From the sequence record MT446410.1: a stretch of DNA of 64,000 nucleotides, one strand, 5' to 3'. A model generated the notes under the pieces. It was not told where the DNA came from and searched no databases. It saw nothing but the letters and a program-made list of their open reading frames with translations. The DNA is from Escherichia virus TH38. Numbering within the stretch: position 1 is the first letter of the stretch; the number at the start of each line of letters is the position of its first letter. Below, in pieces: positions 10,548 to 63,043 of this stretch. The translations under genes and the position numbers were made by a program.

Positions 10548-13500
10548 ATGGCGCTGTATCCAATAAAGTCATTAGGTGCTGTAGGCGTTATCGCTGATCA
10601 GGCTCCGACAGACTTAGCTCCTAATGCTTTCTCTAATGCTATAAATGCTCGGTTTGTTGAGCAGAGAGTATTTAAGACGGGGGGCAATGCCCCTCTTTCT
10701 TATGTAGATGAAGATAAGGATTTAACCCCTCTGTCTTTCATTTCTATGCCTTTCGATTATTATAGCGCAGGTAATAGCTTTCTTGTTGTAGGTACGGATA
10801 AGAAGTTATATAAACTGACAGATGAAAGCTTGACTGATATTAGCCGTAAGGTTGCTACAGTCACTAAAAAGGCTTCTGCCTCAATTAAGATTTATCCGGT
10901 TGTTTCTCAGATTGTTCCTAAAGAATCAACCATCTCAATGAACTTCAATCAGACCAAGAATCTAGAGGTTTCTCTTCTTCCTGCTGATGCCAACAATACT
11001 GATCTTGTTTGGGAGGTTAGTAACTCATCTTATGGAAGTATTACAGTAGACCCTAGTGACTCTAAACTTGCTACTCTAACATCTTTTGAGAAAGAGGGTA
11101 ATCTTGTAGTAACTATCTCTACTGCCAATGAATCCGTAGTGGCTCAGATTGCTGTTAATATCATAGATGGTGATTCAGGCATCTTCTTGAGTCAAGATAC
11201 TGTTACAATTCGTAAGGGAGGGACTACTACTCTCACGGCTGTTACTGGCAAGACTCCTGTAACTTGGTCCAGCAGTAACGCTTCTATTGTATCCGTAACC
11301 CCTAACGCCAACTCTTTAACTGCTGTCATTACAGCGAATGGAGAAGGTAATGTAACAATCACTGCTGATAACGGGACTAAGACTGCTTCTTGTGAGATTG
11401 TTTCTATCCCTCAGATTGATAGTATCTCTTTAAGCCAGTCAGATGTTACTGTGAGTAGAGGTTCTCAGTACATCTTAACTGCTACCCTTTCTCCTGCTAA
11501 CGCCCCTAATCAAAATATTACTTGGACCTCTTCTAATCCAAATATTGCAACAGTATCAGGGACTAGTACACAAGGGACGATCAACGCTCTACTTGCTGGT
11601 TTTACTGAGATTACAGCTACCACTGAAGAAGGTAACAGAGTTGCTGTCTGTATTGTACGTGTGGATTTAGCTGGAAGGACAATGAGAACAAGTGCTATGG
11701 CATTTGCCGCTCCTGTGTCAGAGTCAGTAGAAACTCAAGAGGAAGAAGTAGTAACTCCTCCTGAAAGTGAAGAGACGGTTTATTTTGCTGAGCCTACATC
11801 CGGTATTGATACGTCAGGGATGTATGAAGGTAACAACTTCTACGACTACTCTAACGTGAATGACATTGAAGGTTTTGCAAGAGCTTCTTTACTCGCAACT
11901 CCTTTGTCATCTGTCACCTTAGATATTGTCAGCGCTTCTCTTGATGTTGGTGAAGAGATTGTTGTTACAGCCACAGCTTCTCCGGAAGGTGAGTACTCCT
12001 ATCAGTGGTCTGTTGATAAGACTGGTTATGTTTCTACAACCTCAGTTACTGGTAAATCTATCAAACTGGTTGCTCTTCGTAAAGGAGAGATTAACGTAAC
12101 TTGTACTGTTAGTCAGATGACTCAAAAAGATTACGATGCTTTTGATGACTATCCTTGGTATCATGCTGTTATCTCTAACTGTGCAGTTGCTACAACTCAC
12201 TATGAAACTCCTCAGGTAAAAGAATTCGAATCAGAATACTTTGTAGATCTTCCGGGATGGGGTGAGCAAACAGTTGTGGATAATGATGGAAACCCTTCAG
12301 TCAAGAAGTTTAACTGGAAATGTGAGAGAGTGAGATCTTTTAACAACCGTCTTTTTGCTCTGAATATGAGAGAAGCTAATGCTTCTGGTGTTACCACTAA
12401 CTATCCGCTTCGTCTTCGTTGGTCTAACTTTGCCAATGAGAACAAGGCTCCTACACTGTGGGATGACTTTGCCTATGATCGAGTTGTGTCTTCGGACTTA
12501 GCTTCTAACATCGTAGGTCAGACTCAGGCTCTAGAGAATGGGTATGCTGGTTATATTGATCTAGCAGATTCTAATGGTAGCTTGATTGATATCCTACCTC
12601 TTAAAGATTACTTGTTCGTTTATACAGAGTTTGAAACGTATATTGGTTCTCCGACTAATAACACGTACCAACCTCTAATGTTCAAGAAGCTCTTTAACGA
12701 CTCTGGTATCCTTGCTCCTGAGTGCGTGGTTGAAGTAGAAGGTAGTCATTTCGTAGTTACTCAGAATGATGTAATCTTGCATAATGGTGCAACCAAGAAG
12801 TCAATTGCATCTAACCGTGTCAAGAATATGCTGATTAACGAGGTGTGTCTGGTTAACCCTCTAGCAACTCGAGTGCACTTGCATCAGGATAAGAAAGAAG
12901 TTTGGGTTCTCTATGTAGGACCGGGGGAGCCAAAAGAAAGCTTCGCTTGTACTAAAGCTGCTGTATGGAACTACGAGTTTGATACTTGGTCTTTCCGTAC
13001 TATACCATATGCTCAGTGTATTGGTCTGGTTGATCCTCCTGTTTTAGAAAGAGGTCCAATCTGGTCTGACTTCCAAGAAATCACTTGGGATGACCCATCT
13101 ATTAAAGAACTCGTTTGGAGAAAGGATGCAACAAACTTTAGACAGAGGGTTACGATAGTAGGTTCATTCTTGAAGGGATTCTATCAAGTGGATGTAGGTG
13201 CTCTTGATTATTTCTATGACAGGCTAAATGATGTTGTTATAGAGAAGCCTCTGGAAATGAGGTTGGAGAGGACTGGTATAGATTTTGATAATGTGACTAA
13301 TGAGTGGAATCAGAAGCATATTAACAGGTTCCGGCCTCAGACAACCGGTTCAGGTACTTACATATTTGAAGCTGGTGGTAGTCAATTCTCAAATGAATAC
13401 GGACACCCACACACATCGAAGACTTATACAATTGGTGTTGACAGGCATGTCTCGGTGAGACTGAACCATCCATACCTTTTCTATAATGTTATAGATAATG

Positions 13501-16424: not shown

Positions 16425-17477
16425 ATGTCTTTATTTGGAAAATCAGCTTCTAGCAAAACCACAGTGGCCCCTTCCTCTCAGGTTGATGCCCTGCTGAAGC
16501 AGATTGTTGCTAATGCTCAGAATATGCAGAACAACGATCCGGGATTCATCTCCCAACAGCTGGCTGGGTTTAATGGCAATCAACAAGGTGCTCTGAACAA
16601 CTTAGCAGCTTCTACTACTCAGAAGCAATTGGCTGATATGTACACGCCTCGTACACAGCAAGGGTTAGACCAATTAAACTCTCTTGCACAGCAGTATCAG
16701 AATATTGTCAACGGTGGTGGTTTAACTGCTGATGGTGTTAATAACTTCAGTAAAGGATTGAATAGCTCGGCTCTTGCTCAAGCGACCAGTAAGGCAGCTT
16801 CCAATGTATCTCTCGGAAATGGTTCTGATTCAGGCTCTCTCCGTAGAGCTGCTGCTCAAGGTGCTGCTCTGAACAGTGCTAATACAAACTTAGCTCGTAC
16901 TATCAGTGGCAAGAATATGGGAATCAGTGCTCTTCAACAAGACCAAAACTTCCAGAGAGGTTTACTTGGTGCTCAGTCAGGATTGGCTGGACAGAATCTC
17001 AACCTAGGTGCTCAAGGTGTTCAGGCAACTCAACAAGCTATCCAGAATCAACTCATGGCTGGTAATCTACAACAGCAACAAGCCCAAGCTCAAGCTGATA
17101 TTAATTGGCAGAACGCTATTGGCTCTCAGCAGTATGGGTGGAATCAGCTTAACAACCAACTTAATGTATTAAATAGTGTAAGCCCAATGGCTGGGTATAC
17201 AATTAAGAATGCTGCTCCGGGTGTTAATACTGGACAACAGCTCCTAGGTGCTGGTATCACTGGTTTAGGTATTGCAGGTCGTATGGGTGCTTTCTCTCCT
17301 AATCAACAGACTCAGAATGCTTGGAGTTCCTATAACAACTCAGGTGGGCAATCTGGAATGGCTGGACCTATGATTGGAGGTTCTAATCTTTCTCAACAGA
17401 GAGGTCAGTCTAACTGGTTATCCACAGCAGGTAGTAATATCTTAGGTGGTGTCTTAGGGGCATTTGGAGCAAACTAA
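16425..17477 (+). CDS. internal virion protein, Q/N-rich, glycine-zipper C-terminus
   Basis: 350 aa low-complexity Gln/Asn-rich; paralogous to next gene (shared GFN.NQ..ALNNLA motif). Confidence 0.45.
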   Translation: MSLFGKSASSKTTVAPSSQVDALLKQIVANAQNMQNNDPGFISQQLAGFNGNQQGALNNLAASTTQKQLADMYTPRTQQGLDQLNSLAQQYQNIVNGGGLTADGVNNFSKGLNSSALAQATSKAASNVSLGNGSDSGSLRRAAAQGAALNSANTNLARTISGKNMGISALQQDQNFQRGLLGAQSGLAGQNLNLGAQGVQATQQAIQNQLMAGNLQQQQAQAQADINWQNAIGSQQYGWNQLNNQLNVLNSVSPMAGYTIKNAAPGVNTGQQLLGAGITGLGIAGRMGAFSPNQQTQNAWSSYNNSGGQSGMAGPMIGGSNLSQQRGQSNWLSTAGSNILGGVLGAFGAN

Positions 17478-20188: not shown

Positions 20189-23100
20189 ATGGCTAACATT
20201 AAACCGTGGGAAGAAGCTTCCAAAGCTCCTGCGTATCTGAATGCCTCTCCGGAGCAACAAGCTCAAATGAGAGAACAATATAAGGCAGCAGGTGGCTCTA
20301 TTCCTGAGGAACAACCAGTAGCACAACCACAACAAGAAGAACGTGGTGCTATAGGTGAGTTTGCTCAAGGTGTGTCAAATGCTCTTCAATCTGGTGGTGC
20401 AAATATTGCAGCTAGTGCTGCTAAAGGTATTGGTGGTTTAGTTGAGATTGGTGAGAATCTAGCTGGAGCACAAACTAGTTATGGTAAGCGTATCCAAGAG
20501 AACTCTCAGAACCTTCTGAAAGAACGTATGGATAAGATTGAGGATGGGATTGGTAAAACTGTCGGTCAGTATGCTGGCGTTGCTGGTGATATCGGTTTGA
20601 CAGTTGCTAACCCATTGGCTGCTGCTGCTATCATCGCAGGTCGTGAGACAGGTCGTGCATATGCAGACCAAACCCCTGAAGAGGGAGAAGATAAGTCTAT
20701 TCTAGATGCAGCCTTAGTTGGTGGTGCTAACTATGCGGCTCAGAGAATCCTTCCAGGTGCTGTCGGTACAGCTGAGTCCACACTTGGACGTATTGGTCAG
20801 AACGTTGCTAGTAACGCAGTGGCTGGTGCTAAAGGTGGTGCTCTTGTGGGTGCTGCTGAAGCTCAGAATAAGCACGGAGATGACACAACCTTTGCCAATG
20901 TATTAGAAGGTGCTATCGAAGAAGGTGCTATGGGTGCTGCATTCGGTGGTGCAGTTGGTGGGGTTCATGGTTTGATTAGCCGTCCGGATTCTGCTGTCTT
21001 CAAGAATACTCCAGAGTATGCGAAGACTGATATTGCTGCTGATGATGAACTAATTCGTAGTGCTAAGAATATTGATGAACTGAAAGAAGCTTACTCTAAA
21101 GCTGAAACTGCTAACGCTGCTTCTGCTCTTAACCTTCTGGATGAGAATGGATTCCGTATTACAGATGCTGTTGCTGTAGATTCTCCTGCTGCTCAGCGTA
21201 TTCTTAATACTGACCAAGTTCGTGCTGAGAAAGCTGCTTCTGTTCAGAAAGAACATTCCAACATTCCGGGCCTTAATCCTTTAGCTTCTCCTGCTAAGAC
21301 TCGTGGTAAAGCATTTGCTGATAATGAGCACAACCAGAAGCAGGCTGTTGCTATGAAGGATGCAATGGCTGACTACACCAAAGACAACACGAAAGCTCTT
21401 ACAGATGTTCTAGATAACCTAGACCGTGAATTAACTTCTCTCCGAGCTTCTGGTGATTTTACTGGTAGTCCGATTGATATTAAGAATCGTACACAAGCTG
21501 ACCGTGATTTCATTGATGCTTACAAGACTTTCTACAATGAAGCAAATCGATTCAAAGCTCGTGAAGGTGAAGATTTTAATAACTTTGTAGAGAAAGCTAC
21601 TGAACTACAGAAGATGGCTGATAATGTTTCTCCAGAGATGAAGAAAGCTATCGGTGGGTTGAAGAAACTGAAAGGTATGCCTGAAGGTTTTAATCCTATT
21701 CAAGATGCTTACACTCTGAACAATACAGCTAAATTCATGAGCAACCAAGATCGTGGTTGGACTTCCTTGACTGATGATGGATTCCGTGAGGCTTCTTCTC
21801 CTAGTCTGGTGATGAACACTCTCGGTGCTGCTAAATATGCTCTGAATCGCTTCTCTTCTCAGCGTGCCCGTTCTCAACGTGTTAAGCAACAAGAGTCTAA
21901 TAGTGAAGCTATCCGCTCTCTGGCTCGTGGTGATTTGGAAGTTGCTCGTGCTAAATCTACTGCTGATGAAGCTCGTGCTAAGATGGAAGAAGAACCAGTT
22001 GTTGATGACATTAAATTTAAGACGCAAAATGACGTGGAAACCGAACCGGTTCGGGAGCCTTCTTCTAGTACTGTGACGGAAGAAAATCTTCCTTCTTCTA
22101 CTCCTCAAGAAACCCCTCTCACAGCTCGTGATTTAGTTGCGCAAAGACGCGCTATCCGTCAGGCTGAACAGCGTCGCGCTGAAGAAGAGGCAGCAGCAGC
22201 TCAAGAAGCTCCGGTCGAACAAGCTCCACAGGCTGAACCTCTCCCTGCTCGTAACCCTCTAGAGGAGCGTCGTGCAATGGAACAGCAACGTGCTCAAGAA
22301 GAGGCCGCACAGGCTCCAGAACCAACCGTAGAGGAACCAACAGTCAAAGCTGAGCCATTACCTGCTCGTGCTCCTAAAGCTCCTAAGGAAGCTGTACAGG
22401 ACGTTAAACCGGCAAGTGGTGTAGAACGTTTAGCTGCTATGTCTAGTGCTGCTCGTCAGGCTACTAAAGATCGTGCAGAACGCTTTGCTCGTTCTCTGTA
22501 CTCTAAGGCTGCTAAAGCTAAAGCTACTGCTGAAAACTTCTTGGCTTATAAAGGCGATCCTAAGGAACTGATGCGTCGTATTCGTCAGGAAGATAATGCT
22601 ATCAACACTGAACGTCATGAAGAAATGGCTCGTAACCAGCTGGCCTCTCAGCAAGGTATTGCTACTGCTAAGAACAACACTGTACGAACTAATTTTGCTG
22701 AATGGGTTAAAGAACGTGGTCTGCCAGAAGACATTGCTACTAAGGCATTACGTGCTGAAGAGAAAGGTTTAGGTGGGAACGTAACTAACTTGGATAGTCT
22801 GAAACGTCGTGCTGAAAGGTTGTATCAGAAGCAGCGTGAGGATGAGTTTGATAGACTGTACCAACAAGCTCTAGAAGAGAACAAAGCTTTCGATAAGAAA
22901 GATGCTCCTAAACTGGTTGATCAGAAGAAAGAGCTTCAGTCTGAGATTGATGCTTTGATTGATTCAGAACCTTTACGTCCTGCTCAGAAAGATGCTATGC
23001 GTAAGCTGATGAATGACTTTGTAGATGGGAAGTTTAAATCTTCAGAGAAGGCTGGTAGGGAAGAGGCTTTGGAAGTTGGTCAGATGAAGGATATTTGGGA

Positions 23101-24610
23101 TGGGTTTATTAACACCTACAACAGAGAAGTGAATGCCTTCAACAAAGCTAACAAGAACTCTCAGTACGAAGCTGCTGCTAAGCACTTACAGGCTCGTGAA
23201 GAACGTCTTGCTACTCTGAAAAACAAAGCTCAGGCTCGTTCAGATGCTAAGGCTGCTGTTGAGAATGAACGTAAAACTCTAGAGGCTATTGCAGCTCAGA
23301 AGAGTGAGATTGAGAAGATGATGGAAGGTTTACCTAAACCTGTTCGTGAGGCTCAGGAATCTCGTACATTGAAACAGTTGGCTGCTCACCATGACAAGAA
23401 CTCTCCAGTTCCTCCAGAGAAGTTCCGTAGTTACATTGAACGTATCCACAACGCCGAGTCAGATTACCTTGATCGTCAGCGTCGTTTAACTGATGCAGAG
23501 GAAGATGCTCGTCAGGCCAAGTGGAACAAGATGTATGAGCAAGCGGAAGAAATGAACCGTAAGTTTGATGTGGACAAGAGAGTTAAGCGCAGTGAAGAGC
23601 TTAAAGCGGCCCAAGAGCGTGAGAATGACCTTATGGCAGTACAACGTCAACGTGATGACATTCATCGCCGCCTGATGCGTACTATGGAAGATAAGGGCAT
23701 ATCTAGAGAGGATGCTGAAGCATTTGCTGGTTCCTATATGGATAACCGTTATGCACTTCTTGAGAAGCCTATGACTCCTACTGAACATCAGAATGCTCGT
23801 TCTCGTATCGAAGCTGATGTTGAGAAGTTTGCTAAGAAGTATGAATCAATGACCCCTATCGAGAAAGAGATTGTTAAGGTTACTGGAGATACTGAAGGTA
23901 AGCTTGATAACTTGGATGCGGATACCAGGAAGGCTATTGAGGAGGCTCAGAAGGTTGACTCTGATATTAAGAAACTGCAAGAGGAAGAGTTGGAGATGGA
24001 GAAGATTCGTTCTGCTCTGCCTGATGATGAAAGATCTCAAGCAAATTCTGATATCTTGGAAAGCATTAAACAACAGGAAGAGGTCTTTGCTGATAAAGTA
24101 GAGAAAGCTTTCTTGAGTGGGAAAAGCTTGGATGAGTTGGTTAGTGTGGCTGAAGTTTTAGACAGGGTTCATGGTGCAGATAAGGCTGGTAACAACCGTC
24201 GCTTTGTACGTGCATTGCAGACTGCTGCTGAAAACAAGAAGAAGTATGGTGATAATCCAGTAGCTTGGTTTAGTGCTGATGATTACTCTGCCATTGCTAA
24301 ACTTGGTGCTTCTTCCGCAGGTGGTAACAAATCCAGAGCACTGGAGAAAATCTTTGGTTCTACAGCTGAACAGGCTAAGAGTAAGTTGCTTGGTAGGGAT
24401 GATGTAGCGAAGATGAGACGTGTAATTGAAGAGAACCCTGATATTAAGATTCCTTCTTACAAGACAACCAATCGTACTGAGTACTTGCAGTTCTTGGAGA
24501 AGTTTAATGACGAAGGGAAGCCGAAGATTAAACGTGGCTCATTGTCAGAGAAGCTTGAACGCAGTAAGCGTCAATCGAGACTCCGTGTAAGAGTTCGACC
24601 TAAGGAGTGA
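20189..24610 (+). CDS. giant internal virion / ejection-type protein
   Basis: Start moved to ATG 20189 with RBS aaaggag; ~1473 aa, E/K/A/R-rich coiled coil with short repeats (AEPLPAR x2); last gene of + block. Confidence 0.55.
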   Translation: MANIKPWEEASKAPAYLNASPEQQAQMREQYKAAGGSIPEEQPVAQPQQEERGAIGEFAQGVSNALQSGGANIAASAAKGIGGLVEIGENLAGAQTSYGKRIQENSQNLLKERMDKIEDGIGKTVGQYAGVAGDIGLTVANPLAAAAIIAGRETGRAYADQTPEEGEDKSILDAALVGGANYAAQRILPGAVGTAESTLGRIGQNVASNAVAGAKGGALVGAAEAQNKHGDDTTFANVLEGAIEEGAMGAAFGGAVGGVHGLISRPDSAVFKNTPEYAKTDIAADDELIRSAKNIDELKEAYSKAETANAASALNLLDENGFRITDAVAVDSPAAQRILNTDQVRAEKAASVQKEHSNIPGLNPLASPAKTRGKAFADNEHNQKQAVAMKDAMADYTKDNTKALTDVLDNLDRELTSLRASGDFTGSPIDIKNRTQADRDFIDAYKTFYNEANRFKAREGEDFNNFVEKATELQKMADNVSPEMKKAIGGLKKLKGMPEGFNPIQDAYTLNNTAKFMSNQDRGWTSLTDDGFREASSPSLVMNTLGAAKYALNRFSSQRARSQRVKQQESNSEAIRSLARGDLEVARAKSTADEARAKMEEEPVVDDIKFKTQNDVETEPVREPSSSTVTEENLPSSTPQETPLTARDLVAQRRAIRQAEQRRAEEEAAAAQEAPVEQAPQAEPLPARNPLEERRAMEQQRAQEEAAQAPEPTVEEPTVKAEPLPARAPKAPKEAVQDVKPASGVERLAAMSSAARQATKDRAERFARSLYSKAAKAKATAENFLAYKGDPKELMRRIRQEDNAINTERHEEMARNQLASQQGIATAKNNTVRTNFAEWVKERGLPEDIATKALRAEEKGLGGNVTNLDSLKRRAERLYQKQREDEFDRLYQQALEENKAFDKKDAPKLVDQKKELQSEIDALIDSEPLRPAQKDAMRKLMNDFVDGKFKSSEKAGREEALEVGQMKDIWDGFINTYNREVNAFNKANKNSQYEAAAKHLQAREERLATLKNKAQARSDAKAAVENERKTLEAIAAQKSEIEKMMEGLPKPVREAQESRTLKQLAAHHDKNSPVPPEKFRSYIERIHNAESDYLDRQRRLTDAEEDARQAKWNKMYEQAEEMNRKFDVDKRVKRSEELKAAQERENDLMAVQRQRDDIHRRLMRTMEDKGISREDAEAFAGSYMDNRYALLEKPMTPTEHQNARSRIEADVEKFAKKYESMTPIEKEIVKVTGDTEGKLDNLDADTRKAIEEAQKVDSDIKKLQEEELEMEKIRSALPDDERSQANSDILESIKQQEEVFADKVEKAFLSGKSLDELVSVAEVLDRVHGADKAGNNRRFVRALQTAAENKKKYGDNPVAWFSADDYSAIAKLGASSAGGNKSRALEKIFGSTAEQAKSKLLGRDDVAKMRRVIEENPDIKIPSYKTTNRTEYLQFLEKFNDEGKPKIKRGSLSEKLERSKRQSRLRVRVRPKE

Positions 24611-24617
24611 TAAAAGA

Positions 24618-24649
24618 AAAGCCCTCAAGGAGAAATCCAAGAGGGCTTT
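24618..24649. terminator. bidirectional terminator at convergent junction
   Basis: Stem AAAGCCCTC/GAGGGCTTT with 14-nt loop, T/A-rich on both flanks; between last + gene and first - gene. Confidence 0.55.
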
Positions 24650-24975
24650 ATTTGTTTCTAAGTTTTAAAAACCATCAAATTCGTCATACATCCCAATTCT
24701 CTTCAGAAGTCTGGATGTTCATCTTCAAAGCATCCTGAGATGCCTCCGTAGAACCAATCTGATTTACTTCCAAGAATAACAACTTCTTCATTCATATAAC
24801 TCCCCCTAGATTGTGTTTATAAAATTAGTAAGTTTCTCTTCACTTTCATCAAAAGCTTTTCCAGCTGCTTCCATCTCCCAAGTATCGGCATTGTCAATAA
24901 AGCTCTGAGCTTCTAGTAGGTCATGGATTAAGTCGAAGAGTTTATTTTTATCTGCTTGTGTGATCATGTCAGTTC

Positions 24976-25203
24976 CTAGATTAAATCATAATACTGAATA
25001 ATGTCAGAGAGTTTGAATTCTCGAATCTCATCTTTCTCTACATCTATTGCTGTCATAATCCAACAAGGTTTGCCACCGTTATGAAAACGGGAGCTAGCAA
25101 CGGAGGTTCGGAGTGGAATAACGGACCGGTCAGAAACCTCGCCTCTCCAATTGCGATAGCGAAAGCGAAGCACTTGTTGCGTAGATTTTTGATCATCACT
25201 CAT
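24976..25203 (-). CDS. hypothetical protein
   Basis: Start taken at internal ATG (MSDDQ...) overlapping upstream stop; 75 aa. Confidence 0.4.
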   Translation of the reverse strand: MSDDQKSTQQVLRFRYRNWRGEVSDRSVIPLRTSVASSRFHNGGKPCWIMTAIDVEKDEIREFKLSDIIQYYDLI

Positions 25204-25597
25204 TTCCTTTTTTGAATTGTTTTCTTGCATCATTCTCTTCTTTTGTTTTAATCTTATGACAAGGGTCTTTACACAGAACCTGAAAACCTTCTTTCTCACA
25301 CAGAGCACGAGAGATGATCTCATCCCAAGTTGCTTCGTGGTCAAGAGGAACTATAGGTTCTATGTGGTCAATAGCCATATCCTTTACAGGGTGGTCAGAA
25401 CCACACATGGCACACTTAAAGTGCATTGCCAGTCTACCTGTCTTTGGATTAATCTTCTGCTCTGTCTTGGCGTCTGCTAGTGCATCGAACATGGGCTTCC
25501 ACTTTCTAGTCAGAGAACGAATCCCTGACTTGATGAAAGAGTTGTAACGAGCTTCAGTCCACATTCCACTACAGCGAGTCTTCTCAGACTTCGCCAT
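25196..25597 (-). CDS. HNH endonuclease
   Basis: CAMCGSDHPVKDMAIDHIEP...CHKIK zinc/HNH motif. Confidence 0.75.
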   Translation of the reverse strand: MAKSEKTRCSGMWTEARYNSFIKSGIRSLTRKWKPMFDALADAKTEQKINPKTGRLAMHFKCAMCGSDHPVKDMAIDHIEPIVPLDHEATWDEIISRALCEKEGFQVLCKDPCHKIKTKEENDARKQFKKGNE

Positions 25598-25763
25598 AAT
25601 CAGCTTCTTCCCAAACTCGTTTGTTTACACGATGGCTCACCTTACCCTCACGAGGAATACGACCAGTTCTCTGATCAAACAGTTGATGTTTAATCTTTTG
25701 GTCTTTACGAGATTCACGGTTGGAGTAGTTTTCATCATATGAACGATAATCAAATTTACCCAT
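25584..25763 (-). CDS. small hypothetical protein (59 aa)
   Basis: ORF below 60-aa cutoff found by eye; overlaps HNH start by 14 nt. Confidence 0.3.
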   Translation of the reverse strand: MGKFDYRSYDENYSNRESRKDQKIKHQLFDQRTGRIPREGKVSHRVNKRVWEEADYGEV

Positions 25764-25776
25764 TATAATATCCTTA

Positions 25777-26619
25777 TTACCAAGATTTATCTAACCATGT
25801 CCAGTCGAACAGGTCTTCAGGAGTCTGACCAACAAAGAGCAGCCGCGCATTCTCAAGCATCTTCTCTTCATCTTCAGTATCGAACTTCTTATAATATTCC
25901 ATTCGTACTATATGATACATGGTCCACTTATCTGTAACACCAGCTAGTAATTTAGCTGCTGCCTTCTTCCCTACTCCTTGACGTCGAAGCTGAAGCTTAC
26001 CACCCCACATGACTTCTTCACGTTCCCCACATCCGGGAATATTATCCGTACCGTCTCCAATCAACATTTGATAGAAGAAGTTTTGCCATGAGACTAAATC
26101 AGATACATAGTGAGGAGGGACTTCTTTCTGCCTTTCTCCACAAGCCCAGCGATAATGCCATCCGGGAGTTATCAACAAATCCTTGTCTCTGGTACAGATG
26201 ATAGTATTCTTATCCCTACGTTGCCTTTCAGCTAGTGCATCATCAGCTTCTCTCCCAAAGACCTCAATGTATTCGTACTTGGCTTTAATGTAATCACCAA
26301 CGTTTTGCCAATGAAAAGGTCTTTCTCCGGGAGGTCTGTTTGCCTTGTAGTCTTGTTGCTTAGCAACATCGAAACGGAAGTTACCACCTTCGCTGAAGTA
26401 GAATACAACCTTACTGCAACCTGAGCGAGATATGATCGTATCAATCTTGTACTGAAGTCGTTCAATCATGAAATTGTAATCAACTGGAACACGTCCTGTG
26501 TCAAGAAAAGGATGCTCCTGAGTAAGAGCACCCACTTCATATCGAAGAACGTCAGCATCCACTAGAGCAACTTCAGGGAGCTTAACTTCTTCCATAAATA
26601 TCATCCCGAGCTTGATCAA
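25777..26619 (-). CDS. 5'-3' exonuclease / flap endonuclease
   Basis: Motifs YKANR, GREADDALA, DKDLLI, IGDGTDNIPG; true start may be internal ATG at 26595. Confidence 0.75.
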   Translation of the reverse strand: MIKLGMIFMEEVKLPEVALVDADVLRYEVGALTQEHPFLDTGRVPVDYNFMIERLQYKIDTIISRSGCSKVVFYFSEGGNFRFDVAKQQDYKANRPPGERPFHWQNVGDYIKAKYEYIEVFGREADDALAERQRRDKNTIICTRDKDLLITPGWHYRWACGERQKEVPPHYVSDLVSWQNFFYQMLIGDGTDNIPGCGEREEVMWGGKLQLRRQGVGKKAAAKLLAGVTDKWTMYHIVRMEYYKKFDTEDEEKMLENARLLFVGQTPEDLFDWTWLDKSW

Positions 26620-27183
26620 TAATCCAATCTAGATCTAACACTGCTGATTCAACAGTTGAGTCATTATACAGTAGATATGTTTTTCTCTGCTCACCTTCAA
26701 TATATGAGCGAGAATCTCCCTCAAAAGAGCAACCATCTCTAAGAACTTGGACAACTTGGACATGGAAATTCTTTTCTAGTTCTCGTACCTCTGCATCAAA
26801 ACCTCCGTCAGTAAACACGACAATATCATCCTGACCTAGCCCTTCTTGTTTGATGCTCTTTACAGCAAGAGTCCCCATATGATTATTGCCAAACATAGGT
26901 TTTAAGAAGTCTTCACTTGTAGAAATCATCAGATCTCTTACAGACTTCCCTCCCCATTCTGATCTAGGTTTTTCTTTCCATTCACGATCTTCATAGCGTG
27001 CTAGAAAGTTTTCTAGAGGTATGCCTAGTGCAGCAGCAGCTACCTTATACATTGGCTCCTTGAAGGATTTGGTTAAATAGCCATGATGGTAAGAGTGTGC
27101 ATTTACCCAAGCACTAGCTATCGTATCTTTACCACAACCCGGAGGTCCATTGAGAATTACTACTAAGGGTTTAGACTCACTAA

Positions 27184-27193
<10 letters not shown>
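26582..27193 (-). CDS. P-loop kinase (dNMP/nucleoside kinase-like)
   Basis: Walker A GPPGCGKDT near N-terminus; size ~200 aa. Confidence 0.55.
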
Positions 27194-28679
<1,486 letters not shown>

Positions 28680-28680
<1 letters not shown>

Positions 28681-28940
28681 TATTTTATTCCACGCTCTTT
28701 CAGAGCTTCTAACAATCCATTGTGATTAGCAGCACATTCTGTGTACTGGTCCTGATACCACTCCAACGTAGTGGCTAGTGCCTTTCCTTGAGCACTCTCT
28801 AAAAGAGGTAGGTCAACCCTACATTCAGCTTTTAGGTTTGTTGGTAAGGGCATTGATTGCCTGCTGTTGTCGCTCATTGAACAAGCTGACATACTCATCA
28901 CTAGCGCAGACATTATAAAAAACTGGTTTAGTTTTCTCAT
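28680..28940 (-). CDS. o-spanin-like lipoprotein
   Basis: Start at internal ATG (MRKLNQFFIMSALVMSMSAC...) with signal peptide and Cys; start lies inside 3' end of the i-spanin-like ORF. Confidence 0.45.
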
Positions 28941-29175
28941 AATGCATCTCTTTATAAACGGTTTCCGTGTTCTTCTTCCAGTTAGATATACCGGTAAGAA
29001 CCCTCTGAGCAACTTCATCAGCTGCCCTACTTCTTTCAATCTCTAACTCTTGCTGGTGCTTCTCTTTGTCCAGATTACTGCTATCTGTTCTGTACTCATT
29101 AAACTTCATACCACCAAAGAATACAAGAGCTGAGAAGATAACAAATCCTAGATTATCACTTAAAGTGCTTTGCAT
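28825..29175 (-). CDS. i-spanin-like protein
   Basis: N-terminal TM (LGFVIFSALVFFGG) plus charged coiled-coil; start set to ATG 29175 after terminator. Confidence 0.45.
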   Translation of the reverse strand: MQSTLSDNLGFVIFSALVFFGGMKFNEYRTDSSNLDKEKHQQELEIERSRAADEVAQRVLTGISNWKKNTETVYKEMHYEKTKPVFYNVCASDEYVSLFNERQQQAINALTNKPKS

Positions 29176-29188
29176 ATTGACTCCAACG

Positions 29189-29211
29189 AAAAAAGCCACC
29201 CGGAGGTGGCT
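29189..29211 (-). terminator. rho-independent terminator (- strand) after SSB gene
   Basis: AGCCACC-TCCG-GGTGGCT followed by TTTTT on - strand. Confidence 0.65.
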
Positions 29212-29232
29212 AAGCTATAACAAGGAGAGTTA

Positions 29233-29979
29233 TTAGAATGGGCTATCGTTGTCGTCTTCGTAAGTAGAAGCAGGCTCTTTATCAATCGTAGGGATTGAAG
29301 GAGTAGCTTCTTTCTGCTCTGTTTCAGAAGCACGAGTAATTTCACGACCAGCCAGAGGCATGTTCTTAGCGTCATTAGCTTGAGTAAGCAGGTTGCGCTG
29401 GAACGGGAACATCAGTTGATAGGATGCTACGTTCTCATCGGTTTCAGCATACGGTTCGAAGAATACCAGAGGACTACGAGCTTCACCAACTGCTGCACGA
29501 TATTTGGTTGGGATTGGAGAAATGGTCTTGATGGAGTTTTTAACTTCACCAGCTTTGTTAGTGTAAGAGTTAACCAGAATGTTAACAGGCTGACCTAACA
29601 GAACATCCTTGAACCAAGACAGATCACCTTTCAGTGCTTGAATACTTGGGTCAATCATCTTGCAAAGATCAAGAATACCAGAGTTCTTAGCTCGTGGGTT
29701 TACATCATAGCTCTTGAACTGGCAAGCCGGACGTGGTTCTAATGCCTTACCATCGGAATCTTTACCAGTAGCATCAACACCAATCAGCTCGAAAGCTAAA
29801 TCCATACGGAAAGCCGGATTCTTAGGAGTTACTGCTTTGGTCTTCGGGTCAATCCAAGGGTCACGATTGTGAACACCCAAACCTACCACACGAACGATAC
29901 GTGCTTCGTATTCACCATCAGGGATTACATCGTAGTTGGATTTACGGGAAGCAGTTGCGATAGTTGGAATCATAGACAT
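29233..29979 (-). CDS. ssDNA-binding protein (T7 gp2.5-like)
   Basis: 248 aa with acidic C-terminal tail ending ...EDDNDSPF (terminal Phe), hallmark of gp2.5-type SSBs. Confidence 0.55.
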   Translation of the reverse strand: MSMIPTIATASRKSNYDVIPDGEYEARIVRVVGLGVHNRDPWIDPKTKAVTPKNPAFRMDLAFELIGVDATGKDSDGKALEPRPACQFKSYDVNPRAKNSGILDLCKMIDPSIQALKGDLSWFKDVLLGQPVNILVNSYTNKAGEVKNSIKTISPIPTKYRAAVGEARSPLVFFEPYAETDENVASYQLMFPFQRNLLTQANDAKNMPLAGREITRASETEQKEATPSIPTIDKEPASTYEDDNDSPF

Positions 29980-30038
29980 ATTTTAATTTCCTTATTTAAT
30001 TTGAAAGATTGTTGCTCTCTTTGAGCGGTTATGTATAG

Positions 30039-56344: not shown

Positions 56345-56361
56345 ATTTCCTCTCGTTGAAT

Positions 56362-56388
56362 TTAAAAAAGGACTCTCCGAAAAGAGTC
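56362..56388 (-). terminator. rho-independent terminator (- strand)
   Basis: GACTCT-TTTCGG-AGAGTC then TTTTTT on - strand. Confidence 0.7.
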
Positions 56389-56575
56389 AAGCTTTAAATA
56401 CAAAAAGATATTACCCAATATCTGTGGATAACCTGCTCTTAAAATATCTATCCGACGGATGTTCGAGGAATATTCCTCTCCCTAGCATCGGCCCCATACG
56501 GGAAATATATTAAGATTAGGTTAGTTGAGTCAGAATAACTCATATAGCCCTCCGAAGAAGGCTATAGATGTTACT

Positions 56576-56818
56576 CTATTTATTCCCACCAAATGCGAGA
56601 TAAGCATCCTTGATCTCAGTAACCTGTGAATCAGGTTTGAATGCAGATAGGTGTCCTGTGTTCAGGTTAACTGCGTTGGCAGGGATGATGCAACCCTCTA
56701 CTTTAGTGTCAGGGATTTTCATGTAGTAACTTGAAAAGTGCTCTGCTGAGAAAACTTCCCCAATAGAGATATCACTAATCTTCGCTAGAACATCCTTAGT
56801 TGGTTGCCCTATTTTCAT
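56576..56818 (-). CDS. small protein, GDVF-family paralog
   Basis: ISIGEVFSAEH motif shared with paralogs. Confidence 0.4.
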   Translation of the reverse strand: MKIGQPTKDVLAKISDISIGEVFSAEHFSSYYMKIPDTKVEGCIIPANAVNLNTGHLSAFKPDSQVTEIKDAYLAFGGNK

Positions 56819-58331: not shown

Positions 58332-58621
58332 ACATCCTCCAATTAAATATTTATGTAAGACTTGCTTAGATAAAGATTCAATAAAATAGGGGGAGGGGAC
58401 GAATCCTCCCTTATCCTATTAGTTAATATTGCATGTAAGATCTAACAATCGGTTGCCTTTGTAGGAATAAGCGTAAAGCCAATCCAGCACTAAACTCCCG
58501 CCCCCTTAGTGGGCTGGGTTATTAAAGGGTAACGCCCTTATGGGCTAGTTACATGAATGTTAGTTTGATAGGAGATCTGAAGTCCTATCTCAAAGGACTC
58601 TCGTAAGAATCCTTCACGATA

Positions 58622-60381: not shown

Positions 60382-60456
60382 TGGCGTTCCCTCGTGGAAT
60401 CGAACCACGAATAAGAGCTTAGAAGGCTCCAGTTATATCCGTTTAACTAAGGGAAC
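60382..60456 (-). tRNA. tRNA-Arg (anticodon UCU)
   Basis: Hand-folded cloverleaf: acceptor GTTCCCT/AGGGAAC, D-stem GTTA/TAAC, anticodon stem GGAGC/GCTCT with loop CTTCTAA, T-arm CGTGG-TTCGATT-CCACG, encoded CCA. Confidence 0.7.
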
Positions 60457-60462
60457 ATTACA

Positions 60463-60813
60463 ATGAAAACTTGCACAACCTGTCACACCCAAAAGGAAGA
60501 TTCAGATTTTTACAAGAAAGGAGATCGACTTCATTCTATGTGTAAACAATGCTTCAATGCCTACTGTATTGAACGTTGGAGACAAAGAAAGACTCAAGCG
60601 GTTAAAGATTTCGGAGGTAAGTGTCATGACTGCAACCAAGAGTACCCAGATGCAGTCTTTGATTTCCACCACCTAGATCCCTCTGAAAAAGATTTTGATT
60701 GGAATAAACTTAGACTCCGATCTATTGACTCTATCAGAGAAGAGTTAAGCAAGTGCGTAATGCTCTGTGCTAACTGCCACCGTATTCGTCACATTGATTG
60801 CTCTGTCCATTGA
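60463..60813 (+). CDS. HNH endonuclease
   Basis: CTTCH...CKQC zinc finger and FDFHHLDP...CANCHRIRH HNH motif; only + strand gene within - strand block, next to tRNAs. Confidence 0.7.
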   Translation: MKTCTTCHTQKEDSDFYKKGDRLHSMCKQCFNAYCIERWRQRKTQAVKDFGGKCHDCNQEYPDAVFDFHHLDPSEKDFDWNKLRLRSIDSIREELSKCVMLCANCHRIRHIDCSVH

Positions 60814-61819: not shown

Positions 61820-61873
61820 TTTAGCTTCCTCTTGTTAGTTTAAGTAAGAGTTGTCCCTTAATTAAAACAACAA

Positions 61874-61893
61874 AGGCCGCCCGAAGGCAGCCT
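61874..61893 (-). terminator. rho-independent terminator (- strand)
   Basis: AGGCTGCC-TTCG-GGCGGCCT then T-rich tract on - strand. Confidence 0.6.
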
Positions 61894-61897
61894 CTCT

Positions 61898-62149
61898 TTA
61901 TTGACTCACACCACGAATCAGATGATTCTGTAGCGTACCGTCTTCTGCATTATACAGGAATGCGAACATCAACTCCTTAGCCACATCTCTTGAGCAATTA
62001 AGACACTTAGAGATTTGAGTTAGTTGCATGTTACGTTCAGTGTGTTCCATCAAGGCAATGCGAATGATCTCTCGCATACCTATTACATGAACTGTTTTAA
62101 CCGGCATAGGTCCAATTACCTTGCTTGTTACGAATGGCTGACATTGCAT
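61898..62149 (-). CDS. hypothetical protein
   Basis: 83-aa ORF. Confidence 0.4.
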   Translation of the reverse strand: MQCQPFVTSKVIGPMPVKTVHVIGMREIIRIALMEHTERNMQLTQISKCLNCSRDVAKELMFAFLYNAEDGTLQNHLIRGVSQ

Positions 62150-62595
62150 GAATCCAGAAGCCTTCCAGTTTCAGAGCACCGTTAGCTACTGCATCCATAC
62201 GTTCAGGGCGGTTCATACGTTTGGTTGATACTTTCATACCTATCTCTCTTTGTTAGTGGAGGCATTATTGCCAGTTGATATAAGGGATAGCCCTAGTCAG
62301 TAGACTAATCCTGACCGCGTACTCATTGCCGACCCTCTCTGCCTAAGAGTTCAGGTTCTAGAGCTATCTCTTATTCCAACTGGTGAAGACTCCCTACCCC
62401 TAGGAAGTCTCCTGAATCCCAAACTAATACGTACCCCTACATATCAGAAAGTCTTTCGAAAATTAACAGGTTTTAGTCTAGCACCGGATGTTCGAGCAAG
62501 CTCTCCCTAGCGGTGTGGCATATGCCTGAATTAATAAGTTAATGAGGAACACCCTCACATAGCCCTCTGATAAACACAAGGGCTATAAGTCGGTG

Positions 62596-62814
62596 TTACT
62601 TTTGGGATAAACACAGATCGGGACGTGGCATAACAGTGGTTGATAGACCGAAGACTTCAACATAACCACTGCTCAAGTTAGCAGCCTTACACAAACCATC
62701 AGGGGTTTTATCTTCTAGCATCAGCCAGAAACGTTTATCGTAAGAGAAAACATCACCACCTTTAACATCTTCTGCATTTGCATATTTAGGATAATCAACT
62801 ACTTTAATTTCCAT
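62596..62814 (-). CDS. small protein, GDVF-family paralog
   Basis: VKGGDVFSY motif. Confidence 0.4.
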   Translation of the reverse strand: MEIKVVDYPKYANAEDVKGGDVFSYDKRFWLMLEDKTPDGLCKAANLSSGYVEVFGLSTTVMPRPDLCLSQK

Positions 62815-62824
62815 CTACTTACCT

Positions 62825-63043
62825 TTATTGATTGATGGTTAGATGAACTAACTTATTAACATGGGCGAAGTTAGGAAGGATTTGCATCTCGTTGTTAAGG
62901 ATATTAAAACAACGAACCCCGCCCTCTACAGCATAGGCAGATTTCTGAAACAAGCTACCTCTCCACACAAATACATCATGTGTTTCAAGAGATCGCAACT
63001 GAACAGCTTCATCATCAATCTTTTTCTCAATGTTCATATTCAC
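62825..63043 (-). CDS. small protein, GDVF-family paralog
   Basis: LETHDVFVW motif. Confidence 0.4.
   Translation of the reverse strand: MNMNIEKKIDDEAVQLRSLETHDVFVWRGSLFQKSAYAVEGGVRCFNILNNEMQILPNFAHVNKLVHLTINQ

Follow-up and report, generated by a model that had tools for sequence, protein, structure and literature searches.

A predicted multi-hairpin RNA with a candidate RNase III helix in an early intergenic gap of phiEco32-like phages

The window analyzed here is a 64,000-nucleotide stretch of Escherichia virus TH38 (sequence record MT446410.1), and matches at 93-99% identity identified it as that of a phiEco32-like phage (Kuravirus, Gordonclarkvirinae). We focused on an intergenic gap in a part of the window where every gene is carried by the minus strand. 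The 1.3 kb around this gap matched 95 phage records at 93-99% identity, nearly all of them phiEco32-group Escherichia phages. The gap itself is a spacer of 358 nt (62238-62595) flanked by homologues of phi32_113, which belongs to phrog_6570, and of phi32_112. The corresponding gap of phiEco32 is flanked by phi32_113 and phi32_112 themselves and is part of a long leftward early gene block.

An earlier, sequence-only reading of the window had described the gap as lacking, on both strands, any ORF that reaches 60 aa. This was confirmed for 62238-62595: an ORF listing of both strands gave 33 aa (TTG start) and 28 aa for the largest ORFs inside it. The upstream edge proposed at that time, 62596, agrees with the stop codon of the upstream gene at 62596-62598. 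The downstream edge had to be corrected, as the neighboring gene does not start at 62149; the actual neighbor is a 46-aa ORF (62097-62237) with its ATG at 62237. The gap had also been called a GC-rich island. Its GC content is indeed above the mean of the window (45.3% compared to 42.4%), but this is a weak distinction that places it merely at the 83rd percentile of 358-nt windows.

On the gene strand of the gap, scanning revealed neither a sigma-70 promoter nor an intrinsic terminator; the first hairpin of the spacer, H1, has no U-tract. For the close relative SU10, the published tables of promoters and terminators show neither element in the corresponding gap and place the early sigma-70 promoters solely at the right end of the genome (PMC4281155). 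When we scanned the early region of phiEco32, the same strong promoters as in the published set were recovered and none other of comparable quality. No Kuravirus transcriptome, transcript ends, cleavage sites or expression data were found in the literature searched, and E. coli genomes contained no sequence resembling the spacer (E up to 1e-3).

Homologues of the spacer occur in 124 phage records. We aligned the 24 distinct versions, which come from Kuravirus, Suseptimavirus, Nieuwekanaalvirus and metagenomic contigs, and used RNAalifold with curation to obtain a model of 74 pairs in eight helices. Across the 24 sequences 97.5% of the helix cells were paired, compared to 36-46% when the 3' partners were slid by 1-3 columns. 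Two-sided (compensatory) changes were seen at 14 pairs, as compared to 1-3 in the slid controls, and the covariation score was 0.198 (slid controls, 0.064 or less), a value attained by none of 500 shuffles. The folding of the single sequence was modest relative to shuffled sequences (z = -2.3 for the minus strand and -3.2 for the plus strand); one sequence alone therefore proves little, and the real evidence is comparative. G-U combinations occupied 193 helix cells and A-C combinations only 12. This asymmetry, in which pairs are kept via G-U on one strand, identifies the strand that folds as the minus one, on which the early genes have their sense sequence, and argues for RNA rather than duplex DNA.

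There is no conserved reading frame in the spacer among the 24 versions, which differ by indels of 1-2 nt. In a comparison with the SU7-type phages, identity was 84% over the 5' two-thirds of the spacer and 72% in the downstream genes, while the upstream genes have no detectable nucleotide similarity. The spacer is the best-conserved DNA of its neighborhood, under stronger selection than the adjoining genes. A structured non-coding RNA had been one of the suggestions of the sequence-only reading, with covariation analysis as a proposed check and a conserved protein-coding frame in homologues as the observation that would speak against it. The compensatory changes in eight helices, the strand-specific wobbles and the missing frame all bear the suggestion out. 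Another proposed check, an Rfam scan, matched no family: Rfam 15 gave nothing in the gap at gathering threshold or with E up to 10, and the best match in 62100-62700 was "drum" (13.6 bits compared to a threshold of 43, E = 7.2). The sole Rfam match in the whole window is a tRNA-Arg at 60382-60456, and a paralogous spacer described below had no Rfam match either. The element is therefore uncatalogued. These data strongly support the view that the gap encodes a conserved multi-hairpin non-coding RNA, embedded in the early messenger and built of exchangeable modules.

The features of the spacer are listed in Table 1 together with the downstream gene and terminator. Three sub-domains can be distinguished: a 5' two-hairpin motif, central twin hairpins with GGGG loops, and a long helix at the 3' side.

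Table 1. Coordinates of the spacer features, in 5' to 3' order on the minus strand, and of associated elements elsewhere in the window
Feature	Coordinates	Strand	Basis or remark
P1/H1, extended hairpin	62549..62596	-	begins at the final base of the upstream stop codon
A/U-rich linker UCCUCAUUAACUUAUUAAUUCA	62527..62548	-	most variable stretch, site of indels
H3, 3-bp hairpin with AUAU loop, GGCAUAUGCC	62517..62526	-	covariation
H4, closing stem, invariant 7x7 internal loop and small apical hairpin	62481..62516	-	covariation
J4/5, junction with invariant unpaired UAGACUAAAACCUG	62448..62480	-	invariant alignment columns (24 sequences)
H5, 10-bp hairpin, apex UAGGGGUA	62424..62447	-	10 pairs, 97.9% paired
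J5/6, invariant UUUGGGAU and short variable stretch	62413..62423	-	alignment
H6, 12-bp hairpin, apex UAGGGGUA as in H5	62385..62412	-	four compensatory pairs
H7, long irregular helix	62271..62383 (arms 62271-62296 and 62358-62383)	-	inverted repeat, covariation
H7 apical branched module, 65 nt	62295..62359	-	P22-like homology
H8, small hairpin GGCAAUAAUGCC	62261..62272	-	four invariant pairs
Unstructured tail UCCACUAACAAAGAGAGAUAGGU, 23 nt, with RBS of the 46-aa gene	62238..62260	-	nearly invariant
46-aa gene, phi32_112 homologue	62097..62237	-	phrog_13305, E = 7e-37
Strong intrinsic terminator	61872..61895	-	10-bp stem, 6 G-C pairs, UUCG loop
H3-H4, second copy	56445..56506	-	R1, 78.9 bits, E = 3e-18

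P1/H1 consists of ACACC...GGUGU around UAUAGCCCUU-loop-GAGGGCUAUG. Its 16 pairs were paired in 100% of the 24 sequences and include one compensatory pair (C-G / U-G / U-A); its loop is variable and is UUCG in the paralogous copy. The AGCCCT...AGGGCT hairpin pointed out by the sequence-only reading proved to be part of a 22-nt inverted repeat (62545-62566 / 62579-62600), and the ATAGCCCT repeat reported with it was found again, with copies at 62287 and 62559 that each belong to a different helix. The linker that follows P1/H1 is a possible single-stranded site for an RNase E-type enzyme. It holds -10-like hexamers that end 1-6 nt 5' of H3 and, given this distance, cannot start an RNA that contains H3.

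In H3 the stem changes from GGC/GCC to GCC/GGC in the SU7 type, and further versions are found elsewhere: CCC/GGG in the second copy of the motif and in a metagenomic contig (L186), and GCC/GGC in phage 7-11. The invariant internal loop of H4 reads 5'-CUAGGGN / RAACAUC-3'. Its N and R positions, adjacent to the inner stem, co-vary as A-G, C-A and A-A, never as C-G; this pattern suggests that the two form a non-canonical pair. J4/5 yielded no supported pairing. In H5 one pair is changed on both sides and three on one side only, with C-G/U-G/U-A and G-U/A-U/G-C among the replacements. The 8-mer TACCCCTA, part of the evidence for H6, occurs twice at a distance of 37 nt. The loop of H8 varies (AUAA, AUCC, AACC, AUAG).

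The motif UAGGG occurs five times in the spacer, compared to a mean of 0.25 per 358-nt window on the same strand, a 20-fold enrichment. Nowhere else in the window are there four or more copies, and each of the 24 variants retains 4-5 of them. Most of them sit in loops, namely the internal loop of H4 and the apices of H5 and H6.

Several further candidates were rejected. About one 8-nt complementary match is expected by chance in 358 nt, and the long-range pairings of UAGACUAA with UUAGUCUA and of UUUGGGAU with AUCCCAAA were judged to be due to chance or not conserved, their partners being absent or uncompensated in relatives. Hammerhead-like CUGAU...GAAA strings have the wrong order and spacing and are missing from phiEco32 itself. 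A boxA-like reading of GCUCGAACA was discarded for want of a U-run.

The long helix H7 is formed by an inverted repeat of 26 nt with 85% complementarity, giving 24 bp over 26 positions. It measures 19-24 bp in 24 of 24 variants (19-21 bp in relatives that lack the apical module) and contains six compensatory pairs. In NJ01, LAMP and the SU7-type phages the helix is kept with its sequence largely replaced. The apical module is present in 12 of the 24 variants; in NJ01, LAMP and the SU7-type phages a loop of 5-7 nt takes its place.

The apical module is 79-81% identical over 67 nt to 20-odd P22-like records, whose carriers include BTP1, L, ST64T, ST104 and many prophage contigs. In the P22-like loci the segment lies between the nutL boxB and gene 24/N, in the same orientation, along pL transcription. 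There it likewise sits atop a long helix, so that the supporting stem is shared as well, and a joint alignment with the lambdoid copies gave 28 pairs, 11 of them compensatory. An RNA module has clearly been exchanged between virulent coliphages and P22-like N-gene leaders, and H7 with its module adds a new example to the lambdoid N-leader hairpins, from a phage in which none was expected. A passage in PMC5725501, citing Wilson et al. 2002, describes the lambda N leader, from nutL to the start of N, as highly structured and modulated by RNase III. H7 has two properties of an RNase III signal, a coaxial helix of about 20 bp or more and a position in an intercistronic part of the transcript. Its length and the analogy with lambda make it a candidate RNase III substrate, and the P22-like hairpin may itself be an RNase III site.

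A covariance model of H3-H4, R1, matched the spacer at 62474-62530 (58.8 bits, E = 7e-13) and also a second copy elsewhere in the window. The second copy sits in a paralogous spacer (56345-56575), where it is accompanied by an H1-like hairpin and by a linker resembling that of the gap, and the gene upstream of it (56576-56818) is a paralogue of the gap's upstream gene, again of phrog_6570. Kuravirus genomes have exactly two copies of H3-H4. Copy 2 is kept in Salmonella phage 7-11 and its relatives, which have just ~40 genes in common with phiEco32. The arrangement H1-linker-H3-H4 is also found in L186, a 48.7-kb phage-like contig binned as a Flavobacterium MAG, where it lies in a run of small ORFs beside a sigma-70 decoy homologue; the spacer of this contig has no relative within the phage collection.

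Across these four contexts (copy 1, copy 2, 7-11-like phages and the MAG contig) five of the seven pairs of the H4 closing stem are compensatory and the H4 loop sequences are invariant. R1, which had been built from these sequences, matched solely the two copies of the window, the 7-11 copies and the MAG copy, and other pattern matches were loop strings without stems. Pattern scans of IMG/VR and metagenomes returned mostly the same phage group, plus chance matches without the closing stem. H3 and H4 together span ~55-60 nt and form a portable motif found in three phage lineages, without a described counterpart. The twin GGGG hairpins H5 and H6 have no described counterpart.

On the downstream side, the 46-aa gene adjoins the spacer in every relative, including those with other genes upstream; the spacer follows a gp116 homologue in LAMP and Bas93. 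The 46-aa protein had no match in Pfam or PDB and its PHROG family has no assigned function. A PDB sequence search with both downstream proteins, of 46 aa and 83 aa, gave nothing. The terminator at 61895-61872 was kept in 10 of 10 relatives checked, and in SDYTW1, EcoN5 and Bas93, where the 83-aa gene is missing, it directly follows the 46-aa gene. The RNA, the 46-aa gene, the optional 83-aa gene and the strong terminator form a conserved unit.

One possibility for the role of the RNA was masking of the RBS of the 46-aa gene by simple sequestration. In partition-function folds of eight variants the pairing of this RBS was inconsistent, with a mean unpaired probability of 0.5-0.76. Simple translational masking is not supported, because the RBS is not consistently paired across the ensembles, and this candidate was rejected. 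A regulatory region had been an alternative in the sequence-only reading, and such a role in cis is plausible.

We tentatively favor an interpretation in which the element acts in cis, as a leader and a processing region whose helix H7 is of the RNase III type, and we give it somewhat less than an even chance. The gap would be transcribed by host RNA polymerase within a long leftward early messenger, and the folded RNA would form the leader of the unit composed of the 46-aa gene, the optional 83-aa gene and the terminator. P1/H1, positioned at the upstream stop codon, may cap the 3' end of the upstream message. The A/U-rich linker would be cut by an RNase E-type enzyme and H7 by an RNase III-type enzyme. 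Such cleavage would detach the downstream cistron from the upstream RNA and yield a defined and hairpin-protected 5' end ~30-50 nt before the start codon of the 46-aa gene. The internal loop of H4 and the two UAGGGGUA apices could then be recognition surfaces for some factor. A role more specific than processing is suggested because a plain processing site needs ~60 nt, not 358, and because the invariant H4 loop, the identical GGGG apices and the 20-fold enrichment of UAGGG would be superfluous for it. The cis-processing interpretation leaves the invariant loops unexplained.

It could be speculated that the RNA acts in trans, the H3-H7 core (~250-300 nt) being excised as a stable RNA that captures a conserved host factor, which could be an RNA-binding protein or else the machinery of transcription or translation, and serves as a protein decoy or sponge like CsrB/RsmZ through its UAGGG loops. 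The abundance and retention of UAGGG, the loops that stay invariant while the stems co-vary, a compact hairpin-bounded build that would favor stability, and conservation better than that of the adjoining genes are all consistent with this proposal. However, we know of no partner protein for UAGGG in enterobacteria. CsrA-type sites were considered and dismissed, as the GGA that CsrA requires is lost in several variants (those with N = C), and the strict adjacency of the 46-aa gene suits a role in cis better. We regard a trans-acting RNA as unlikely. If it were true, a virulent phage would carry a type of decoy or modifier RNA not so far described in coliphages, and H3-H4 would be its portable unit of recognition, employed again at a second site as well as in distant phages.

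Another possibility is a put-like or nut-like function in which H3-H4, with or without the help of a phage protein, binds host RNA polymerase during elongation and causes read-through of intrinsic terminators. Each genome has two similar copies, both followed by a strong terminator that is conserved (61895-61872 after the first and 56388-56371 after the second, here ~60 nt past the copy). As in HK022 put, there are two adjacent stem-loops with non-canonical pairs in an internal loop (PMC9378689). The sharing of the motif by E. coli phages, Salmonella phages and one unrelated contig fits a conserved host target, the adjoining module derives from a nut-N leader context, and the antitermination strategy of phage 7-11 "remains to be defined" according to its authors (PMC8948821). 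On the other hand, ~6 and 12 kb separate the copies from the early promoters upstream of them, and at least three strong terminators (phiEco32 L216 positions 26865, 25537 and 25451) come before the first of them. R1 found no match in the P22-like loci or in HK022 22,000-30,000, a stretch that may not hold both put sites; the boxA consensus is unmatched, and H5-H8 are left unaccounted for. Taken together, this function is distinctly unlikely, and less probable than action in trans.

An independent transcription unit, in which a promoter in the linker starts an RNA at H3 that ends at the conserved terminator, is quite improbable. Every copy does have -10-like hexamers in its linker (TATAAT in SU7; TATATT with CTGACT at 18 nt in copy 2; TTAACG-17-TATCAT in the MAG contig) and the unit closes with a strong terminator. 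However, with hexamers 1-6 nt before H3 the start would fall inside the covarying H3, and the -35 regions are poor and unconserved. Neither our scan of the gap nor the published maps include such a promoter, and selection at the RNA level extends to P1/H1, which lies upstream of it. An element acting as DNA, such as the replication origin proposed by the sequence-only reading or another protein-binding site, is very improbable even though a long non-coding stretch stands out in a compact genome and the paralogous spacer of copy 2 contains a DnaA box that is both perfect and conserved. In the gap itself there is neither a DnaA box nor an AT-rich stretch, iterons are absent, repeat families do not go beyond pairs of 8-10 nt, and keeping helices by G-U pairing on one strand is needless for sites in duplex DNA. 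It is hardly credible that a gene for a small protein was overlooked here. Some records annotate ORFs of 33, 40 and 55 aa, with the 33-aa or other short ORFs marked in CHD5UKE1, Bas93 and UKE3, and the 33-aa TTG ORF is present in most Kuravirus-type copies. Its start, however, lies inside the H1 loop without a ribosome-binding site, it is missing in L197, PE006 and SDYTW1, the SU7 type has another frame, and substitutions in the spacer track base-pairing and not codon positions.

Phages of the phiEco32 type are represented in therapy collections, and sigma-factor replacement is studied in them as a model case. The early region of these phages has been annotated as a series of hypothetical small genes without RNA elements, and one such element is now defined. 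Its exact coordinates are offered for work on processing and read-through of the terminator-interrupted early operon, a question that is open according to the authors of the 7-11 study (PMC8948821). If it is true that the element binds a host factor, it would represent a new type of phage takeover RNA.

Known systems resemble the spacer in part. GOLLD and ROOL of Rfam are likewise phage-borne conserved structures of several hundred nucleotides with a tRNA gene not far away (here tRNA-Arg), but the spacer is much smaller, has no Rfam match and, except for H3-H4, is confined to one phage lineage. Like CsrB/RsmZ, the spacer RNA presents a short purine motif (here UAGGG) four to five times, mostly in the loops of consecutive hairpins. 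In contrast, the CsrA motif is GGA, and CsrB/RsmZ have genes of their own whereas the spacer RNA is messenger-embedded. The early RNase III signals of T7 (R0.3, R0.5, R1, R1.1 and R1.3) sit between the cistrons of a long early transcript made by the host polymerase, and are hairpins that extend over about two helical turns and contain internal mismatches. H7 is of matching size and position, but the T7 signals are single hairpins of ~60 nt and H7, a candidate site only, is one of eight helices in 358 nt with invariant loops. HK022 putL and putR share with H3-H4 the two similar copies per genome, the two adjacent stem-loops, the non-canonical pairs and a position upstream of early-operon terminators (PMC9378689). 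There is no similarity in sequence or model between them, however, and H3-H4 is not promoter-proximal and has terminators upstream as well.

The lambdoid N leader (lambda N; gene 24 of BTP1, L, ST64T and ST104) invites a further comparison. The carrier phages here are virulent and not temperate, the spacer has no preceding boxA/boxB nut site, no similarity to N was detectable in the 46-aa protein encoded downstream, and the module is optional, being missing in half of the phiEco32-group variants. The two leaders nevertheless agree in having a 65-nt branched module on a long irregular helix, placed just upstream of the RBS of a small early gene on the transcribed strand, with cores that are ~80% identical and stems that co-vary.

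The structured RNA of the ORF-free main spacer in the early region has a paralogue of its 5' part in a second spacer, roughly 230 nt long and likewise free of ORFs, which shares an H1-like hairpin, the linker and the hairpins H3 and H4. Past the H3-H4 motif of the second spacer comes an invariant AGGUUAUCCACAG; an A/U-rich stretch leads from it to an intrinsic terminator, behind which lies a membrane-like ORF of 50 aa. This entire arrangement is kept in Salmonella phage 7-11, where the gene downstream is annotated as "putative endolysin". Three small genes (72-80 aa) form a paralogous family, since all of them match phrog_6570. As the RNA 5' domain follows two of the three, one copy behind each, the data suggest that gene and RNA were duplicated together.

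The perfect DnaA-box consensus TTATCCACA occurs three times in the window (0.59 expected; none of 100 shuffles gave three), once inside the second spacer. The latter box showed no variation in any Kuravirus or 7-11-like copy seen, and it may correspond to an origin, to a control point that depends on DnaA, or to an RNA seed sequence.

A strong intrinsic terminator within the early operon was kept in all ten relatives checked, and it is not among the terminators listed for the close relative SU10 (PMC4281155). Early genes 3' of this element must rely on read-through. In phiEco32 (locus L216), several further strong terminator-like hairpins break up the early operon on the stretch from the early promoters to the main-spacer position, which makes the early region look like a series of attenuated units. 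Between the two copies of the RNA motif is another terminator-like hairpin (GGGAGG...CCUCCC, then CCUAUUUUAU), and phiEco32 has a counterpart of it.

The early region also encodes a tRNA-Arg, directly adjoined on the opposite strand by a 116-aa ORF. Judged by its sequence, the predicted product contains Cys-rich and HH...CANCH strings and looks like an HNH endonuclease. Because phiEco32 lacks this ORF at the corresponding place, it may be a mobile insertion.

Features discussed in the text (TH38 positions unless a locus is named)
Feature	Position	Strand	Remark
phrog_6570 gene	62596-62814	minus
phrog_6570 gene	62825-63043	minus
phrog_6570 gene	56576-56818	minus
Second spacer	56345-56575	minus
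Its intrinsic terminator	56388-56371	minus
Membrane-like ORF	56344-56192	minus
DnaA box	56423-56431	minus	in second spacer
DnaA box	12275-12283	minus
DnaA box	17418-17426	plus
Strong intrinsic terminator	61872-61895	minus	10-bp stem, UUCG loop
Strong terminator-like hairpin	L216 25432-25451	minus
Strong terminator-like hairpin	L216 25520-25537	minus
Strong terminator-like hairpin	L216 26838-26865	minus
GGGAGG...CCUCCC hairpin	58391-58410	minus	counterpart L216 19801-19820
tRNA-Arg	60382-60456	minus	anticodon TCT
116-aa ORF	60463-60813	plus
H1-linker-H3-H4	L186 3010-3254	plus
nutL-gene 24/N hairpin	1480-1590 in each of L004 (BTP1), L005, L006		P22-like phages

The H1-linker-H3-H4 arrangement was also found on a 48.7-kb contig (L186) binned as a Flavobacterium MAG, for which a search of the phage collection gave no relative. 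There it sits amid a row of small ORFs, close to a homologue of a "decoy of host sigma70"; a hairpin that has GGGG in its loop and carries a U-rich tail follows about 75 nt downstream.

In P22-like phages, a hairpin lies between nutL and gene 24/N, and the same element is present in about 40 prophage contigs (among L076-L171); no description of it was found in the literature searched. This hairpin is a conserved branched RNA, and its supporting stem co-varies across lambdoid lineages that differ in their nut sites and N genes.
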